Assembly (NCBI GenBank): GCA_964510165.1
Contig: CAZEBC010000075.1
Coordinates: 1-17,312, forward strand
Reading direction: 5' to 3'
Source of the DNA: an uncultured bacterium
GTDB taxonomy: Bacteria; Abyssobacteria; SURF-5
Length of the DNA stretch: 17,312 nt
Positions 1-9,178 of the stretch are shown here, piece by piece; the first letter of the stretch is position 1, and each line of letters opens with the position of its first letter. The notes under the pieces were generated by a model, which had not been told where the DNA came from, did no database searches, and saw nothing but the letters and a program-made list of their open reading frames with translations. The position numbers and the translations under genes are program-made.

Positions 1-192
1 AACTCGCCCAACACTTCGTCCTTTTTCCTGAGCTTGGCCTCAAGACGGGCGATCCGCTCCTCCTCGCGCCTGCTCTTTTTCTCCCACCGCCGCTCGAATG
101 CCGCCGCGCCGCACTCAAAGAGGTGCTTTTGCCAGCGATAAAACACCGTGGGCGAAAGCCCGTGTCTGTCGCACACCTCCGACAGCGGCGCC
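1..192 (-). mobile_element. IS3-family transposase OrfA (HTH) fragment, 5'-truncated or fused, running off the left edge
   Basis: Manual minus-strand translation gives ...APLSEVCDRHGLSPTVFYRWQKHLFECGAAAFERRWEKKSRREEERIARLEAKLRKKDEVLGE. This is an HTH with the FYRW motif followed by a coiled coil, typical of IS3 OrfA. The frame is open back to ATG 344 or 410, but the part upstream of about 192 does not look like OrfA and no terminal inverted repeat is evident. Not in the ORF track. Confidence 0.75.
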
Positions 193-390
193 CCGCCCGA
201 TTCCACTCTCGCGGTCGAGCGATTTTCGGGGGCAACCTTGGGGTTTGTCTGCCCTCGCTGCCGGAACAAGGTTTTCCTCCATACGAATCCACGTACGGTC
301 ACCAGACGGCTGCGCATCTCGCTCGAGATCGCCTGGCTCGGCATAGTCAATTTCTTCCGCAGAATCACCCGCTTCCGTTCGCGGGAATAG
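193..390 (+). pseudogene. Probable 3' remnant of a gene with a CPRC motif, abutting the IS3 fragment
   Basis: The frame of ORF 148..390 reads ...LGFVCPRCRNKVFLHTNPRTVTRRLRISLEIAWLGIVNFFRRITRFRSRE* with GC3-rich codons. It ends just before REP-like palindromes, and its apparent start lies inside the IS sequence. Confidence 0.3.
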
Positions 391-396
391 TTAGAA

Positions 397-428
397 TAGG
401 GACACAGCATGCCGCATGGTGTCCCCAC
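397..428. repeat. Degenerate GTAG-type REP-like palindrome
   Basis: TAGGGACACAGCATGCCGCATGGTGTCCCCAC; arms GGGACAC/GTGTCCC; similar to the element at 7427-7451. Confidence 0.55.
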
Positions 429-490
429 TATAACTCGGGCTTCCCGCAACCCGCATAGCCATAACAAGATTTTGGTACGCCGCGCCTTGT

Positions 491-515
491 GCAGGGGCGG
501 CCCTTGTGGCCGCCC
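491..515. repeat. GTAG-type REP-like palindrome, possibly the 3' hairpin of the lexA operon
   Basis: GCAG-GGGCGGCC-CTTGT-GGCCGCCC, an 8-bp perfect stem ending 13 nt beyond the stop at 529. Confidence 0.6.
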
Positions 516-528
516 GCTCGGCAAACCA

Positions 529-795
529 TCATTCGCACATCTCTTTTTCCAGTTCGTCAATTCGCTGTTTCAGCAGCGCGATTGTCTTTTGGTGTTCCAG
601 CAGGATAGCCATGAAGATGGATTCCATCGGGACCGGGCGCGAGGCATAGGAGCAGGCAGCGGAATGGTACCTGGCCGTGTCAAATATCTCATCGAAGGCA
701 GCCTGGTCCTCTTTCCTGAGAACTCGCCGAAATTTCGCCCATTCCTCGCGTTCCTGCTGAATGACTTGCGCGATGGGCAACACCGTTCTTCCCAC
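529..795 (-). CDS. Small helical protein of the PolB2-associated type (PPB2/arCOG07300-like), 88 aa
   Basis: GTG start at 795 with RBS GGAGGT (803-808) overlapping the upstream stop. Sequence MGRTV...EREEWAKFRRVLRKEDQAAFDEIFDTARYHSAACSYASRPVPMESIFMAILLEHQK matches the recalled MGRT...W..FRR.L...D...FD...P.P.E...M.ILLE pattern. It sits next to an iRadA-like gene. Confidence 0.75.
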   Translation of the reverse strand: MGRTVLPIAQVIQQEREEWAKFRRVLRKEDQAAFDEIFDTARYHSAACSYASRPVPMESIFMAILLEHQKTIALLKQRIDELEKEMCE

Positions 796-800
796 TGCCC

Positions 801-1493
801 TCACCTCCAATCCCACTGGCGCTGGTAATGCCTCGGAAGCTCGGGCATTCGAAGCCGGTTATACAGCTTTCTTCGCGGTTTTTCCAGAGCGAACCGGGCT
901 TCGCCCTCGCCGCCTTCGCTCCTGAGCACCGTGGAGGAAATTCGTATGAGATGGTCCCGGAACCGCCTTTGCCTCGCCTCGAGCGGCAACCGGCTGTCAG
1001 GGCATACGATGAGGATACGGGTGCCTTTCCCGGCCAGCCTCATGAATTCCGCCGTAGTGGTTTCGAGCAGATCATACGCCTCGCCGAATGGAACGTCCTC
1101 ATCGTAAAACGTATCGAGCAGTCCCGATGCTACCGCAACATTCGTGTTGAATCGGCGAAACGCGCACTCCAGCCGATCCACCACGAGCGCCTGCATCTGA
1201 TGACACGTAAAGGCGCGCGAGATGTGGATGCGCCTCAGCAGGTCTTCGGACGAAAGCCCCATCTTTTGGGCAAACTTGGCTATGAAGAACGGGTTGAATG
1301 AGTTGGAGCCGTCGAGATACACGACGGGCTTCTCGCGGGCGACCCCCGCAAACGTCATGTAGAGCGCAAGGTAGGTCACCGAAAAAGCCGGCGCGCCGTA
1401 TGCCAGCACAATGCCGGCGGGCGGCTGGGCCTTGAGGTCGGCGCGGATTCTCTCGAGCGTCCCGTCCGCCGGACATGTCAGATGCTTCTCCAT
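801..1493 (-). CDS. Inactive RadA/RecA-fold protein (iRadA/ImuA-like), 230 aa
   Basis: RadA/Rad51-core motifs VVYLDGSNSFNP, L.RIHISRAFTCHQ and GLLDTFYDEDV. Walker A is degenerate (YGAPAFSVT, no GKT). The start overlaps the end of lexA. Confidence 0.8.
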   Translation of the reverse strand: MEKHLTCPADGTLERIRADLKAQPPAGIVLAYGAPAFSVTYLALYMTFAGVAREKPVVYLDGSNSFNPFFIAKFAQKMGLSSEDLLRRIHISRAFTCHQMQALVVDRLECAFRRFNTNVAVASGLLDTFYDEDVPFGEAYDLLETTTAEFMRLAGKGTRILIVCPDSRLPLEARQRRFRDHLIRISSTVLRSEGGEGEARFALEKPRRKLYNRLRMPELPRHYQRQWDWR

Positions 1494-2080
1494 ACTCCCA
1501 CAACCTTTCCGACGACCCGGAACGACGCCCCTTTCTCAACCTCTATCGGCTCCATGCGCTTGTTTTCGGGTTTCAGGATGATGCGGTCTTCCTCAATGAT
1601 AATTCGCTTGACGGTGGCCTCGTCATCAAGCAGGGCAACCACTATATCGCCGTGCTCGGCGGTCGCCTGCTGCTTGACGACGACAAAGTCGCCCGAACAA
1701 ATGTGGGCATCCACCATGCTGTCGCCTTCGACCCGCAGCAGGAAGCAGTCATTGTCATGGACCCACGCGTCCGGGAGCATGACGACGCCCTCGATGTTCT
1801 CGACCGCCAGCACAGGCTCACCCGCTGCCACGCGGCCCACAATCGGCAGTTCCCGCAGACCGCGCCTGCCCGAGCCGACCACCTCCAGCGAGCGCGCCTT
1901 CCTCGATTTTCTGGCGAGATATCCCTTCTGTATCAGCGCGCTCACGTGATTGGCCGCCGCATGCGGAAGGAACCCGAACCGCCCGCATATCTCGCGTACC
2001 GTGGGCGGATAGCCGTTCTCACCGATGAAATCCTTGATGAACTCGAGGACCTCTTTTTGCCGGTCTGTCAGCGTTCGCAT
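1478..2080 (-). CDS. lexA: SOS transcriptional repressor LexA
   Basis: N-terminal LTDRQ..VLEFI...GYPPTVREI winged helix, cleavage site VGRVAAG, catalytic Ser in GDSM and Lys in ATVKR. Confidence 0.97.
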   Translation of the reverse strand: MRTLTDRQKEVLEFIKDFIGENGYPPTVREICGRFGFLPHAAANHVSALIQKGYLARKSRKARSLEVVGSGRRGLRELPIVGRVAAGEPVLAVENIEGVVMLPDAWVHDNDCFLLRVEGDSMVDAHICSGDFVVVKQQATAEHGDIVVALLDDEATVKRIIIEEDRIILKPENKRMEPIEVEKGASFRVVGKVVGVWRSI

Positions 2081-4047: not shown

Positions 4048-4446
4048 CTACTTGTTCTTTTTCTTCGTCTGTCCCGGCGGATACTTTTTCTTGTGTTCGT
4101 CGGCTTTCAGATAGGGCTTGTCGGAGTCCGATTCGATCACCACGTACTCGTCCAACTGGACGCTCAGATGCACCGGCAACGAGCCCGATACTCTCCATTC
4201 GCCGTCCTCGTAATAAAAATACAGGCCCCTCGCCGGCTCAAAATACACCTGCGCTCCCGGATAATAATGATACATGTGCTTGGCCCTGTATCCCCATGCC
4301 GGCGCATGGGGTGGCGGCCCCTGCTTTACCTCAGGCTCCGTCCCCACGTACACCCCGCCCTCCGTCGAAGCGCAGGCGAGAGACGTAACGGCCAACAGCA
4401 GGCAGCATAACACAATACCCCACTTCGAGACGGGTATGCGTTCCAT
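4048..4446 (-). CDS. Small lipoprotein of unknown function (GPPPHAPAWGYR / KKYPPGQ type), 132 aa
   Basis: ATG 4446 with GGGGGA RBS; hydrophobic signal ending in lipobox SLAC; GPPPHAPAWGYRAKH, YYYP..QVYF...RGLYFY and C-terminal YPPGQTKKK. Confidence 0.8.
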   Translation of the reverse strand: MERIPVSKWGIVLCCLLLAVTSLACASTEGGVYVGTEPEVKQGPPPHAPAWGYRAKHMYHYYPGAQVYFEPARGLYFYYEDGEWRVSGSLPVHLSVQLDEYVVIESDSDKPYLKADEHKKKYPPGQTKKKNK

Positions 4447-4640
4447 CTTCAATCCCCCATTCGTCGAGCGCAATAAATTGCGCCCTCTACACCGAAACCT
4501 TGTTACAGAAATGTCATGTTCCTGTCATGAATCGTTATCGGCGCCGATCAGCACCAAGCCTTTTCGTCAAATTCGCCTTTTCATTGCGGCGAAGCTCAGC
4601 CTTAGGGAGCAAATGCCGTGCCACCGACCCAGCACCTGTT

Positions 4641-4680
4641 TCTTGGTGACTCTTTGTGTCCTTGGTGATTGGGTGGTTGA
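4641..4680 (-). repeat. Dispersed CACCAAGACACAAAG-type intergenic repeat
   Basis: Reverse complement TCAACCACCCAATCACCAAGGACACAAAGAGTCACCAAGA resembles 9180-9210. Confidence 0.6.
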
Positions 4681-4702
4681 AGCGACGCCATATCGGTCGC
4701 CC

Positions 4703-5401
4703 TTACGGCAGCCAGAACGGCCCGGTTTTCCCGATCTCCTTCAGCGTCATCAGAAAGCCTCCGACATATCCCTGCATATGCGAAAGGTAGTCCGGGTCCA
4801 GCCGCCTCCGGAAAAAATCGGCCGAAAACAGCTTCACGAGATCCTCGAACGGGATGATGCCCGCCTCTTTCTCCGCATCAAAATGGGCCCAGTTCCTCAG
4901 ATGTTCTTCCGACCGGAAGAAATGCATCGTGCTTCAGGCAAAACCGGGGTCTTCCATCCACTTCAGGAATGGAACCGACACGTGACCGATCACGGTCTCG
5001 GGGTCCTTGCGGAGAACTTTCCCGTCTTTCATCTCGACGCGGACCGGCTCGCCGCAGTCGAGGCACGGGGAATCTATACGAACGGTTTTGCCCGGCAAGA
5101 GCCAGCAGACCGCCAGCGATTCAAACGCTCACTGGCCAAACCATTTCTGCTGACCATCTACGGTGATGCGGTACTGATTCGGAAGGTTGTGAAAGGGGGC
5201 CATTGACACGATCAGGTCGGTCTTGGGGTACAGCCAGCCGGGAACGCCCGAATTCATGAGATCGTGAAGCGCCCTCCTGCCTTCCTCCATCGAAAGGCCG
5301 AGTTGTCTCGCGATCTCCGTGTAGTGCGGCGCCTGCCCGGTTTCCACCATTCGTCGCATGATGACGTTGAACGTCCTATCCAGCATGGTAGGCTCGCTCA
5401 T
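4703..5401 (-). CDS. MerB (organomercurial lyase)-like selenoprotein with two selenocysteines (U91, U156), 232 aa
   Basis: ATG 5401 with RBS AAGGAGGT. One frame joins ORF-track pieces 5129..5452 and 4703..4927 through in-frame TGA at 5131-5129 and 4936-4934: ...QQKWFGQ-U-AFESLAVCWLLPGKTVRIDSPCLDCGEPVRVEMKDGKVLRKDPETVIGHVSVPFLKWMEDPGFA-U-STMHFFRSEEH... These match MerB WC96ALD, SxC...G.PV and C159..VHFF.S. The true stop is TAA at 4705-4703. Confidence 0.9.
4900..4928 (-). promoter_or_regulatory. Candidate bacterial SECIS element for the second UGA
   Basis: mRNA after UGA: AGCAC-GAUG-CAU-UUCUUCC-GGUC-GGAAGAA-CAUC. 7-bp perfect upper stem plus 4-bp lower stem; apical loop starts with G at +20. 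Confidence 0.8.
5099..5122 (-). promoter_or_regulatory. Candidate bacterial SECIS element for the first UGA
   Basis: mRNA after UGA: GCGUUUGAAUC-GCUGGC-GGUCU-GCUGGC-UC. 6-bp stem with two G-U pairs; apical loop starts with G at +18 and has the same GGUC as the second element. Confidence 0.7.
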
Positions 5402-5436
5402 GGGGTGTTCACCTCCTTGGGGTTTGTCCGGACGGC

Positions 5437-5465
5437 ATAATATCAGAGACACACGCGCGTTTCAA
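5437..5465 (-). promoter_or_regulatory. Sigma70-type promoter for the MerB-like gene
   Basis: Minus strand TTGAAA, 17 nt, TATTAT, with an extended -10 TG. Confidence 0.65.
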
Positions 5466-5501
5466 GCGAGAAGCGGGGATACCCGTTTCTCTCGCAGATG
5501 T

Positions 5502-7461: not shown

Positions 7462-9084
7462 TTACTTGAACAGCACAGCCTCGATCTCCGGGTCCTGCGG
7501 CTTCACTCTTACCTTCATCGCTTCGGCGGAGTATGAACTGGCCAGCCGATTCCTTGCATCGGGACTCAGCGTCTCGAAGAATCTCTTCGTGAACGCCATT
7601 TGTCCTTTTCCGGCACTGCTGCACATGCGCGCCGCGTTATTCACCACGGCGCCTATCAGCGTATAGTCCAGCCGCACCTCTTGTCCCATATCGCCCATAA
7701 TCACCTCTCCGAAGTCGCACCCGATGCCGACAGGGAGCAAGCCGCCGCTTGCAATGGCCTCGTGTATCTTCATGGACGCGACAGCGCAGTCGGAGAGCTT
7801 GTAGTCGGGGAAATATGCCAGTATGCCGTCACCCATGAGCTTATTGACACGGCCTCCGCACGAATTTATTGTTCTCGACGTGAGTTCGTATTGCCTGTTA
7901 AGCATCAGCACCACGTCGTCGGGGGATCTGTCGGCGCTCCATTTCGTGAACTCTCGAATATCTATGAACATGACGGCCACGTTTGTCTTGAAAGCCTGCA
8001 AGCCGCGCTTCACCACGTCGCCGACCTTCGTATCGGTCCCGAAGCGCATGCCGTATTGCCTGCTTAGGAACCTCCTCCGAATGGAGTCCAATATCTGCGT
8101 GGTTTGTAGAGACCAGATGTTGTTCCACTCATGCTCCTGGCTGTATGTCAACGGATTCGCGACGCCCAATTCCTTCGCCTTTTCTGATACGGTGTCTATC
8201 AACAGCGCGAGCGTCGACGGCCCTTCCGCCATCGCCGCCTTCATCAGTTCCTGCAATGTGCCCGCGTCTATCTCCTTCTTCAACCAATACTCAAGCCATG
8301 CCTTTCCCACTCTGTAAAGCTCCTCTATCCTTCCGGTCGAAGGTTTGTTCCTTAATTCCTGCACGAGCTGTCCCGGCTCGACCTCAAGCAGCATGTTCAG
8401 GAACTTTTCGACGTTATCCTGTATGATCCCGCCATGCTGCGGCAGTATCCTTTCCAGCTTGAGAGTCTTGATCTTCTCATACGCATACAGCACCGGCTCT
8501 TTCGCTGCGATATAGTGCTCGATGAAACTTTTGGCCAGCGGCACGTACGACTCGTCCGCGTACAGGCTCCATTCCCGGCTGAACACCGCGAAGATATCGC
8601 TCGAGAACAAGGACGCCGTCTTCTCGTCGTAACTCATCATGTTGCCCGCAAAATGGAGATACGGCGCATGATAAAAGAAGATTCGCCTGCCCGACTTCAT
8701 CCTCAGCGAGTCGCCGTCACCCAGCGGCAGCACGCCCTTCCTGACCCCGTAATACGGAACGAACAGCGAGGTCCTCGGATGACTCATGATCACGAGGTCG
8801 GGGTGCAGCGAATTCTCGATGAAGGGGATCAATCCGCACAAGTCGGGGTCCTGATGATGGACAACGATATACTTTATCCGCTCCGGACTCACCACCTGCT
8901 CGATCTTTTGAAGGATAAGGTCCCGGAAAAGCGGATGGCCCGGCCCCGGATCGAAGAGCACGGCCTCCTCCTCATCCACCAACAAATAGGGGTTGTTCGA
9001 GAAGCCAGCCTCGTAATCCGCAAACCCCACCCACCAGATGTCATCCGCTATCTTGATAGCATTCGAGTCATCAAGCTTCCTCAT
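7462..9084 (-). CDS. ODP-like (MBL-fold di-iron) sensor domain fused to a class III adenylate cyclase, 540 aa
   Basis: ATG 9084 with RBS GGAGG. N-terminal: IWWVG, NPYLL...LFDPG, HHQDPDLCG, HFAGN, LFSSDIF, PQHG. C-terminal: MFIDIREFT, VNKLMGDGILAYF, GIGCDFGEVIMG, DYTLIGAVVNNAARM. Confidence 0.9.
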   Translation of the reverse strand: MRKLDDSNAIKIADDIWWVGFADYEAGFSNNPYLLVDEEEAVLFDPGPGHPLFRDLILQKIEQVVSPERIKYIVVHHQDPDLCGLIPFIENSLHPDLVIMSHPRTSLFVPYYGVRKGVLPLGDGDSLRMKSGRRIFFYHAPYLHFAGNMMSYDEKTASLFSSDIFAVFSREWSLYADESYVPLAKSFIEHYIAAKEPVLYAYEKIKTLKLERILPQHGGIIQDNVEKFLNMLLEVEPGQLVQELRNKPSTGRIEELYRVGKAWLEYWLKKEIDAGTLQELMKAAMAEGPSTLALLIDTVSEKAKELGVANPLTYSQEHEWNNIWSLQTTQILDSIRRRFLSRQYGMRFGTDTKVGDVVKRGLQAFKTNVAVMFIDIREFTKWSADRSPDDVVLMLNRQYELTSRTINSCGGRVNKLMGDGILAYFPDYKLSDCAVASMKIHEAIASGGLLPVGIGCDFGEVIMGDMGQEVRLDYTLIGAVVNNAARMCSSAGKGQMAFTKRFFETLSPDARNRLASSYSAEAMKVRVKPQDPEIEAVLFK

Positions 9085-9178
9085 CGCCTTACCCTCCTCT
9101 CCTGGTGACACGCAACAACACATCAATTAAATTATGCCACCAAAATGACGGATATGACGGAGGGACGCGAAGATGTCA

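Follow-up and report, generated by a model that had tools for sequence, protein, structure and literature searches.

A predicted MerB-like protein with two selenocysteines at the positions of the catalytic cysteines, encoded in an uncultured Abyssobacteria genome

Results

A single minus-strand frame interrupted by two UGA codons

We analysed a stretch of 17,312 nucleotides (nt; hereafter the window), contig CAZEBC010000075.1 of assembly GCA_964510165.1 from an uncultured bacterium of the Abyssobacteria (SURF-5), which carries at 5401..4703 on the minus strand a gene related to that of the organomercurial lyase MerB. When TGA is translated as selenocysteine (Sec, U), the coding sequence comprises 232 codons followed by a TAA stop (4705..4703), and its assignment draws on translation, Pfam, AlphaFold2 and Foldseek. 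The only interruptions of the frame are TGA at codon 91 (5131..5129) and TGA at codon 156 (4936..4934). An earlier note on this DNA had described one frame broken only at these two codons; translation confirms it and adds the strand, which the note had left unnamed. The motifs quoted there, Q-U-A-F-E-S, S-P-C-L-D-C-G-E-P-V and A-U-S-T-M-H-F-F-R-S-E-E, are likewise all present.

Read with translation table 11, the same frame appears as two listed open reading frames (ORFs), 5129..5452 (-) and 4703..4927 (-); the intervening 64 codons are not listed. Gene callers cut the gene into three pieces, and the ORF list gives no separate start codon for the piece that follows TGA-91. A ribosome-binding site, AAGGAGGTG (5410..5418, minus strand), can be read directly from the sequence 8 nt 5' of the ATG. 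Further upstream, a promoter-like TTGAAA-17-TATTAT with a TG extension (5465..5437, minus strand) agrees with the consensus at 10 of 12 positions, which is a pattern match only and no evidence of function; it lies in the divergent intergenic region shared with an acyl-CoA dehydrogenase gene. We also observed that an antisense ORF of 310 codons, 4274..5206 (+), covers most of the MerB-like gene and is longer than any sense-strand fragment. It is probably spurious, and it could be called in place of the real gene and so mislead gene callers.

Contigs from further public runs cover the gene as well. One (X1) spans the whole stretch with 9 base differences and another (X2) covers 4699-5479 with 5; none of the listed differences touches a TGA, and indels are absent. 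One of these runs is possibly the source sample itself, and no RNA run is listed among those that contain the gene.

Both TGA codons are conserved among homologues

We assessed the conservation of the two codons in the GTDB representative collection, with one genome per species (185,579 species), where 529 matching stretches were found, 453 of them encoding a relative. The window was aligned with the best 80 loci of other GTDB species among these 453 (81 sequences in all, identity 62-79%). According to their record titles, the 80 loci belong to Deltaproteobacteria, Syntrophaceae, Desulfobacterales, Chloroflexia, Acidobacteriota, Thermoleophilia, Candidatus Poribacteria and Candidatus Abyssobacteria metagenome-assembled genomes (MAGs).

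TGA is present at both aligned codons in 80/80 of these loci, and conservation of the protein runs on to the C-terminus. Counting the window, UGA-91 (5129..5131), the GAA codon 94 for Glu (5120..5122), UGA-156 (4934..4936) and the motif PCLDCG, which holds the CxxC (C-L-D-C) of codons 113-116 (5054..5065), are invariant in 81/81 sequences, and the surrounding patterns Q-U-[AGS]-[FI]-E and U-[STA]-T-M are essentially fixed. The homologues thus answer the point raised in the earlier note: the two positions hold TGA or, in wider relatives, Cys, and conservation does not end at the first TGA.

Sampling within single phyla gave a similar picture. In the small phylum of the window itself, 9 of 11 genomes have a match, 7 of them full-length with two TGAs each; in one genome (G009) the gene is split across two contigs, with one TGA in each half. 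We then considered 401 genomes sampled evenly from the phylum of a Syntrophaceae MAG (the Desulfobacterota-type sample), in which 48 genomes gave 58 match rows. Exactly two TGAs occur in 42 of the 44 matches that have at least 44% identity, or two TGAs over a partial match. Besides these 42 rows there are one row with three TGAs, the third near the C-terminus and probably the true stop, one decayed copy, in which a TAA stands near codon 23 and site 2 has Val, two N-terminal partial matches, nine distant matches without stops and three distant matches with one TGA. By this tally of match rows, the two-Sec form is present in 38 of the 401 sampled species (9.5%). The decayed copy (L120, G368:C14:3800-5000) has retained its first TGA; Val replaces the second Sec. 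In a Chloroflexota-type sample, also of 401 genomes, 31 genomes gave 35 rows, of which 6 have two TGAs, 19 have one (one of these from the unpublished genome G715) and 10 have none.

Public protein sets hold the family mostly as fragments, covering residues 1-90, 92-155, 159-232 or 1-155. Database entries that appear full-length show W at both sites, and the entries are named only 'hypothetical protein' or 'Alkylmercury lyase'. Since every inspected genomic locus has TGA, this W is most probably a TGA that was called by translation table 4.

SECIS-like hairpins follow both UGA codons

Each UGA is followed, within the coding sequence, by a hairpin resembling a selenocysteine insertion sequence (SECIS). 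Hairpin 1 (5096..5122, minus strand) starts 11 nt past UGA-91 and consists of a stem GCUGGC / GCUGGC closing a GGUCU loop (upper stem 5117..5101), flanked by a weaker lower stem. Hairpin 2 (4900..4928, minus strand) starts 12 nt past UGA-156, where a stem of 7 base pairs, UUCUUCC / GGAAGAA (4921..4904), closes a GGUC loop and is lengthened in the window by GAUG / CAUC. We take both to resemble the SECIS of Escherichia coli fdhF, with its 11-nt spacing and GGUC apical loop. Because single-sequence folding was unremarkable, with a minimum-energy fold after UGA-91 that pairs differently from hairpin 1, comparative pair counts were needed to evaluate these elements.

For hairpin 2, fold, invariance and covariation agree. 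In 72 distinct rows, 97.8% of cells are paired, a fraction that drops to 42.5-63.7% on sliding the partner by 1-3 columns. Covariation is seen at the closing pair 16-33 (C-G 29, U-A 28, U-G 7, other 8), and 0/500 shuffles reach the observed score. The sequence CUUCCGGUCGGAAGA after UGA-156 is identical in 81/81 sequences, and each of codons 162-165 (F-R-S-E) is the same in all 81 (TTC CGG TCG GAA), despite the six codons available for Arg and for Ser. For hairpin 1 (76 distinct rows) the paired fraction is 91.7%, and sliding the partner lowers it to 24.6-68.0%. Its one-sided changes keep or strengthen pairing (five each of U·G to C·G and of G·U to A·U); in the shuffle test, 209/500 reach the observed score, the variation being too low to be informative. 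Mean synonymous-codon entropy is 0.20 bits over the 5 codons of hairpin 2 and 0.67 bits over the 7 codons of hairpin 1, compared to 1.41 bits over 117 other conserved codons. A strain variant in X1 touches the lower stem of hairpin 1: at 5096 (column 36 of the alignment) the coding strand has C for G, by which the unpaired G10/G36 would become a G-C pair.

The host encodes selA, selB and selD and uses TGA as a normal stop

The genome of the window encodes selA (581 bits), selB (340 bits, cut by a contig end) and selD (394 bits), all above their cut-offs. The selD gene has one in-frame TGA in its G-G-U-A-C-K site (G000:C52, about 8480; L009) and is therefore itself a selenoprotein gene. Elsewhere in the window TGA is the stop of 5/10 neighbouring genes and long table-11 ORFs are normal, indicating that TGA is a normal stop here and that no code reading TGA as sense is in use. 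Co-occurrence with selA is uninformative: 369 of the 401 genomes of the Desulfobacterota-type sample exceed the selA cut-off and, by our reading of the match listing, the carriers G191, G403 and G407 have no selA match.

The protein has a MerB fold and aligns with the MerB active site

The predicted protein consists of an N-terminal winged-helix-like region (residues ~1-60), a MerB core (residues 73-191) and a C-terminal helical extension (residues ~192-232). The core is delimited by a match to Pfam MerB (PF03243) of 81.1 bits, against a cut-off of 27 (E 8.9e-23), so that the MerB-like character claimed in the earlier note holds. On the other hand, the curated MerB models NF009710 and NF033555 gave 45 and 44.5 bits, below their cut-offs of 193 and 200, and the model of the MerB-like selenoprotein SaoL (NF040728) gave a weak match of 37 bits against a cut-off of 140, which marks the window protein as a distinct MerB-like selenoprotein. 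No model of NCBIfam 20.0 claims it.

Structure-based comparisons are in concordance with the Pfam match. Of the solved structures, MerB2 (5c17, E 4.2e-9, HMMER) gives the strongest match in sequence. An AlphaFold2 model built from a 37-sequence alignment reached a predicted local distance difference test (pLDDT) of 95.9 and a predicted template-modelling score (pTM) of 0.90. MerB and MerB2 chains take the first 11 places among the Foldseek matches of this model in the PDB (E 9.9e-11 to 7.8e-7, target TM 0.58-0.74), at 18-23% identity and with a common fold over about 200 residues. The next match, at E 0.18, is a LexA DNA-binding domain and involves the N-terminal winged-helix part only. NosL, a lipoprotein that binds Cu(I), has no chain among the Foldseek PDB matches at E ≤0.001. 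The window protein is thus inside the MerB superfamily and outside the canonical MerB and SaoL families.

In the HMMER alignments to solved MerB and MerB2 chains, U91 falls on Cys96, E94 on the proton donor Asp99 and C113 on the structural Cys117, C116 being an additional cysteine. U156 falls on Cys159 in the alignments to MerB2 and to the C160S variant. In the wild-type MerB alignment a one-residue gap moves U156 to Cys160, and counting without gaps from the HFF motif places it on Cys159. The spacing between the two Sec positions is 65 residues versus 63 in MerB. These alignments bear out the proposal that U91, E94 and U156 mirror Cys96, Asp99 and Cys159, with the CxxC mirroring the Cys117 region.

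Relatives with one or no selenocysteine

Relatives with other residues at the two sites are those expected for Sec sites, including the Cys/Cys forms P0027 and P0035 and the Cys/Sec form L112. The Cys/Cys relatives are found at 24-57% identity and have the C-terminal extension in common. The single-TGA relatives L112-L116 and L118 (genomes G686, G771, G664, G776, G507 and G442) combine a Cys at site 1 with a Sec at site 2. The Cys/Sec and Cys/Cys relatives share with the window protein the ...LFRSEEH motif, the position of the SECIS after the second site and a C-terminal RLxPDY...FW tail, and differ from it by Cys at the first site, as N-C-A-W-D or Q-C-G-L-E. At site 2 the L112-L116, L118 group has Y-T-U-x-T-M-x-L-F-R-S-E-E without a CU dipeptide, and it makes up 19 of the 35 match rows of the Chloroflexota-type sample. 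Another relative, L119, has the CU dipeptide as in SaoL.

To place these forms we computed a quick maximum-likelihood tree. Its 60 rows are the window, every third of the 80 loci (27 used, 53 left out) and 32 others, namely two paralogues with two Sec, another two-Sec copy (L121), six Cys/Sec forms, one SaoL-like form, 21 Cys/Cys forms and one canonical MerB. The main two-Sec clade comprises 31 rows with an SH-aLRT (Shimodaira-Hasegawa-like approximate likelihood ratio test) support of 98. P0027 and P0035 are nested within it, and the SaoL-like row L119 lies outside. Two other two-Sec lineages, L101 and the second copy of the genome itself, stand outside the main clade; the latter is a long branch on whose placement the program warns. 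The two-Sec state changes 4 times on this tree, at least 3 of the changes being forced by the starred branches.

This second two-Sec paralogue of the genome (P0298, G000:C39:18386-19189; L110:5387-6190, minus strand) is 25% identical to the window protein and has U-A-V-D at site 1, F-U-R-E at site 2 and a GGUC-loop hairpin after its second UGA. It lies downstream of genes for a TonB-dependent receptor, ExbB, ExbD and an MtaA/CmuA-like methyltransferase of the URO-D family. The same genome also holds a C-terminal fragment of a canonical Cys-type MerB (G000:C143:7-159, L111; ...F-C-D-K-V-H-F-F-S-S...), which scores 37 bits to Pfam MerB, has a broken upstream frame and may be a remnant.

Genomic context

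The neighbours of the MerB-like gene in the window encode a 2-oxoacid dehydrogenase E2, a GNAT protein, the divergent acyl-CoA dehydrogenase, an ODP-domain cyclase, a glyoxalase and an old-yellow-enzyme-type reductase; DUF362, YqeY, IlvD and thiamine pyrophosphate (TPP) enzyme genes are also present. No transporter, thioredoxin-like or DsrE-like gene occurs among the Pfam-scanned window ORFs, for which specific Sao hidden Markov models were not run. The MerB-like gene stands alone with a promoter candidate of its own (the pattern match described above), outside a mer operon and outside the SAO locus of SaoL. We clustered ORFs of at least 90 residues within ±4 kb of the 81 loci; the recurrent neighbours are CCG/HdrD-like proteins (12/81), FAD_binding_4 (10), acyl-CoA dehydrogenase (8), molybdopterin oxidoreductase (6) and pyridine-nucleotide disulfide oxidoreductase (6).

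Co-occurrence with HgcA was evaluated in the 401-genome Desulfobacterota-type sample with a back-translated pattern of its cap-helix motif; a reversed-pattern control gave 0 matches. The motif is present in 18 of 38 two-Sec carriers versus 91 of 363 non-carriers (odds ratio 2.7, nominal p 0.006, with no correction for kinship or genome size).

Two further regions of the window are recorded here for completeness. At 3-2080 (-), a lexA gene (1478-2080) is followed by a gene for a 230-residue protein with weak Rad51/RecA-like similarity (801-1493) and by an ORF with a transposase helix-turn-helix at the window edge (3-560), which together may be a LexA-controlled mutagenesis or mobile cassette. 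At 7462-9126 (-), an ODP-family metallo-beta-lactamase-like (flavodiiron-type) domain is fused to an adenylate/guanylate cyclase domain, and the product could be a gas- or redox-sensing cyclase.

Discussion

We propose, with confidence slightly better than even, that the gene encodes an intact two-Sec protein of the MerB fold acting as a Sec-Glu-Sec organometal lyase, probably on organomercurials, outside any mer operon. In this proposal both in-frame UGAs would be read as Sec, each recoded by its own hairpin inside the coding sequence, 11-12 nt downstream, whose GGUC loop would be shown to SelB, yielding a cytoplasmic protein of 232 residues. The selenols of Sec91 and Sec156 would stand where MerB has its two metal-binding catalytic cysteines, with Glu94 at the position of the proton-donating Asp99. 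The substrate would be an organometallic compound, most probably an organomercurial (methylmercury, for example); its metal would be bound by the two selenolates, and Glu94 would protonate the leaving carbon, so that the hydrocarbon is released and the metal is held between two seleniums. Such MerB-like protonolysis is favoured because of the conserved triad, the fold and the behaviour of selenium mimics: with selone mimics of organomercurial lyase, Hg-C cleavage is described as faster than with the corresponding sulfur compounds (PMC11639659). Taken singly, organometal lyase activity is an even call, and mercury as the physiological metal is a tentative assignment to which we give less than even weight. 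The lyase chemistry, the identity of the metal and the release of a tightly bound product are what we infer from these features, just as the metal-carbon lyase or metal-binding activity of the earlier note was an inference.

Several observations weigh against this proposal. A metal held by a bis-selenolate should be extremely tightly bound, and it is difficult to see how the protein would turn over with no partner; for MerB lacking MerA, Christakis et al. point to this release problem as well (PMC8261052). No merR, merT, merP or merA was found by Pfam among 17 window ORFs, and no MerA reaches its cut-off in the genome (best 375 bits versus 454). There is no conserved neighbourhood, the commonest cluster, that of the CCG-domain protein, being present at 12/81 loci. 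The HgcA cap-helix motif was not found in the genome itself, and the enrichment of HgcA among carriers is modest, comes from one motif pattern and takes no account of phylogeny or genome size. Redox proteins make up most of the catalogued bacterial selenoproteins (PMC9312934, PMC13188914). As regards recoding, single-sequence folds of the 60 nt after each UGA are no better than shuffles (z -1.07 and +0.20), and a whole-window scan up to E 1 matched no Rfam family; no curated SECIS family applies. Finally, tRNA-Sec was not found in this draft genome with Rfam RF01852, ARAGORN or cmscan on the best candidates: the best RF01852 match, 45.9 bits against a cut-off of 47, is a tRNA-Leu, and the top candidates are tRNA-Leu, tRNA-Trp and tRNA-Ser. 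The draft (325 contigs) has only 40 tRNAs and none for Ile, indicating that its tRNA set is incomplete. All five genomes examined from the same family contain tRNA-Sec (95 nt, 66.9-68.6 bits versus a cut-off of 47), where it does not adjoin selA or selB; thus the contig break after selB does not explain the missing gene. Of the Sec machinery invoked in the earlier note, selA, selB and selD stand, and tRNA-Sec is not found in the draft, yet is present in 5/5 genomes of the family.

Both TGAs are, in our assessment, almost certainly selenocysteine codons of a genuine two-Sec selenoprotein. Were they true stops instead, in a pseudogene, three small ORFs or an assembly error, the splitting of the frame by gene callers, the tRNA-Sec missing from the assembly and the decayed relative in G368, with its TAA and its Val at site 2, would fit. 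TGA at both sites in 80/80 loci, with the protein conserved across and beyond them, speaks against true stops, as do the conserved hairpins with covariation, the contigs of other strains that keep both TGAs and the lack of a start codon in the ORF list for the fragment past TGA-91; we consider this reading extremely improbable. The earlier note had argued for an intact di-Sec gene as opposed to two chance nonsense mutations, and the codon conservation and SECIS-like hairpins uphold that argument. Nor is it much more probable that UGA is read as another residue, be it Trp or Gly by a deviant code or Cys carried on tRNA-Sec. Several database proteins do show W at both sites; however, TGA ends half of the ten neighbouring genes among long table-11 ORFs of normal appearance, the same two TGAs recur across several standard-code phyla, they stand exactly where relatives have Cys, each with a SECIS-type hairpin, and the selD of this genome has a classical Sec site.

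The function of a two-Sec protein admits two further readings. Sec91 and Sec156 might cycle between a diselenide and two selenols, the MerB fold serving as the scaffold of a redox enzyme. The predominance of redox proteins in the catalogues, the redox enzymes among the recurrent neighbours (CCG/HdrD-like in 12/81, FAD_binding_4 in 10, and others) and the invariant CxxC (C113, C116) point this way. A pure redox couple, however, would have no need of the acidic residue three positions after the first Sec, an invariant Glu in 81/81 and Asp or Glu in most wider relatives; moreover, no neighbour occurs in more than 15% of loci, and C113 aligns with the structural Cys117 of MerB. We regard a redox function as unlikely. 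Somewhat less likely still, the protein could lack catalytic activity and serve, much as the copper chaperone NosL does, to bind, escort or store a soft metal such as Hg(II), Cu(I), Cd or Ag with very high affinity. NosL is described as the only protein known to resemble MerB in structure (PMC10114901, PMC8261052). PDB entry 5c0t, by its title a MerB D99S mutant from work on altered metal binding, can be cited in favour of such a binder, as can the extreme affinity and slow release expected of two selenolates and the lack of a partner gene for product removal. On the other hand, the window protein appears to retain the full catalytic triad including the acid residue, two costly Sec insertions seem wasteful for a stoichiometric binder, and the N-terminus, inspected by eye with no predictor, has no signal peptide or lipobox of the NosL type.

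Comparison with known systems sets the proposed Sec-Glu-Sec lyase apart. SaoL, the 'selenocysteine-assisted organometallic lyase' of Haft and Gwadz (NF040728; bioRxiv 10.1101/2022.07.06.499078), is described in the text of that preprint as a MerB-like protein with a single Sec in a CU motif on Cys159 and with Cys99/Asp102 on Cys96/Asp99, encoded in a nine-gene SAO locus that includes the ATP-binding cassette (ABC) transporter SaoABP, SaoX, SaoE, SaoC, SaoT and SaoD. Both are MerB-fold cytosolic proteins of anaerobes with Sec at the Cys159 position, database entries truncated at UGA and a presumed organometallic substrate. SaoL keeps Cys at the Cys96 position, and its locus encodes an ABC transporter. 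The window protein, in contrast, contains two Sec (in Q-U-A-F-E and A-U-S-T-M) and no CU, has Glu for Asp and is extended by 40 residues at the C-terminus; SAO genes are absent from its surroundings. With canonical MerB and MerB2 (3f0o, 3f0p, 1s6l, 5c17) it shares the fold, the three active-site positions, the structural cysteine and the N-terminal winged-helix-like region, whereas Sec-Glu-Sec replaces Cys-Asp-Cys, which is chemically analogous and not identical, and the two-Sec form occurs mainly in anaerobic lineages, as judged from record titles.

The caution of the earlier note on novelty was right, as SaoL has been described; it has one Sec, in CU, and the two-Sec form appears in none of the literature or model libraries searched. 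The main text of Haft and Gwadz (bioRxiv 10.1101/2022.07.06.499078), leaving its supplements aside, does not mention a two-Sec MerB, and the table passages of the prokaryotic selenoprotein catalogues PMC9312934 (2022) and PMC13188914 (2026) contain only the one-Sec SaoL family among MerB-like entries. Full-text literature searches for MerB or alkylmercury or organomercurial lyases as selenoproteins brought up no further relevant paper. The text of the mer-gene survey PMC8261052, supplementary tables aside, has 0 occurrences of 'seleno'; this survey, the largest of its kind, is stated there to include only 10 MerB-bearing Deltaproteobacteria. Mer surveys start from called proteins and require Cys96, Asp99 and Cys159, and are therefore blind to a gene that is cut in three by two UGAs. 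The two-Sec MerB-like clade is large, distinct from SaoL and canonical MerB, and systematically mis-annotated, and its design is widespread in anaerobic bacteria.

Natural methylmercury levels depend on degradation as much as on formation. A further-reaching interpretation, which we hold to be rather improbable, is that this family is the enzyme, long sought, by which methylmercury is degraded in anoxic sediments independently of mer: a di-selenolate lyase that would act on picomolar to nanomolar methylmercury, cleave Hg-C faster than the thiol enzyme and leave Hg locked to Se. There are also hints of a bolder variant, in which the two-Sec site is retuned to other metal-carbon bonds (methyl-cobalt, tin, lead or arsenic, for example), because the paralogue P0298 adjoins the MtaA/CmuA-like methyltransferase gene and the TonB-dependent uptake cluster. 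At minimum, annotation pipelines should join the fragments of two-Sec MerB-like genes. If active, the protein would be a concrete, clonable candidate for anaerobic organometal cleavage and a natural experiment on swapping both metal ligands of an enzyme for selenium. If it is indeed a methylmercury lyase, the selenium and mercury cycles would be linked in the same anaerobes that make methylmercury.

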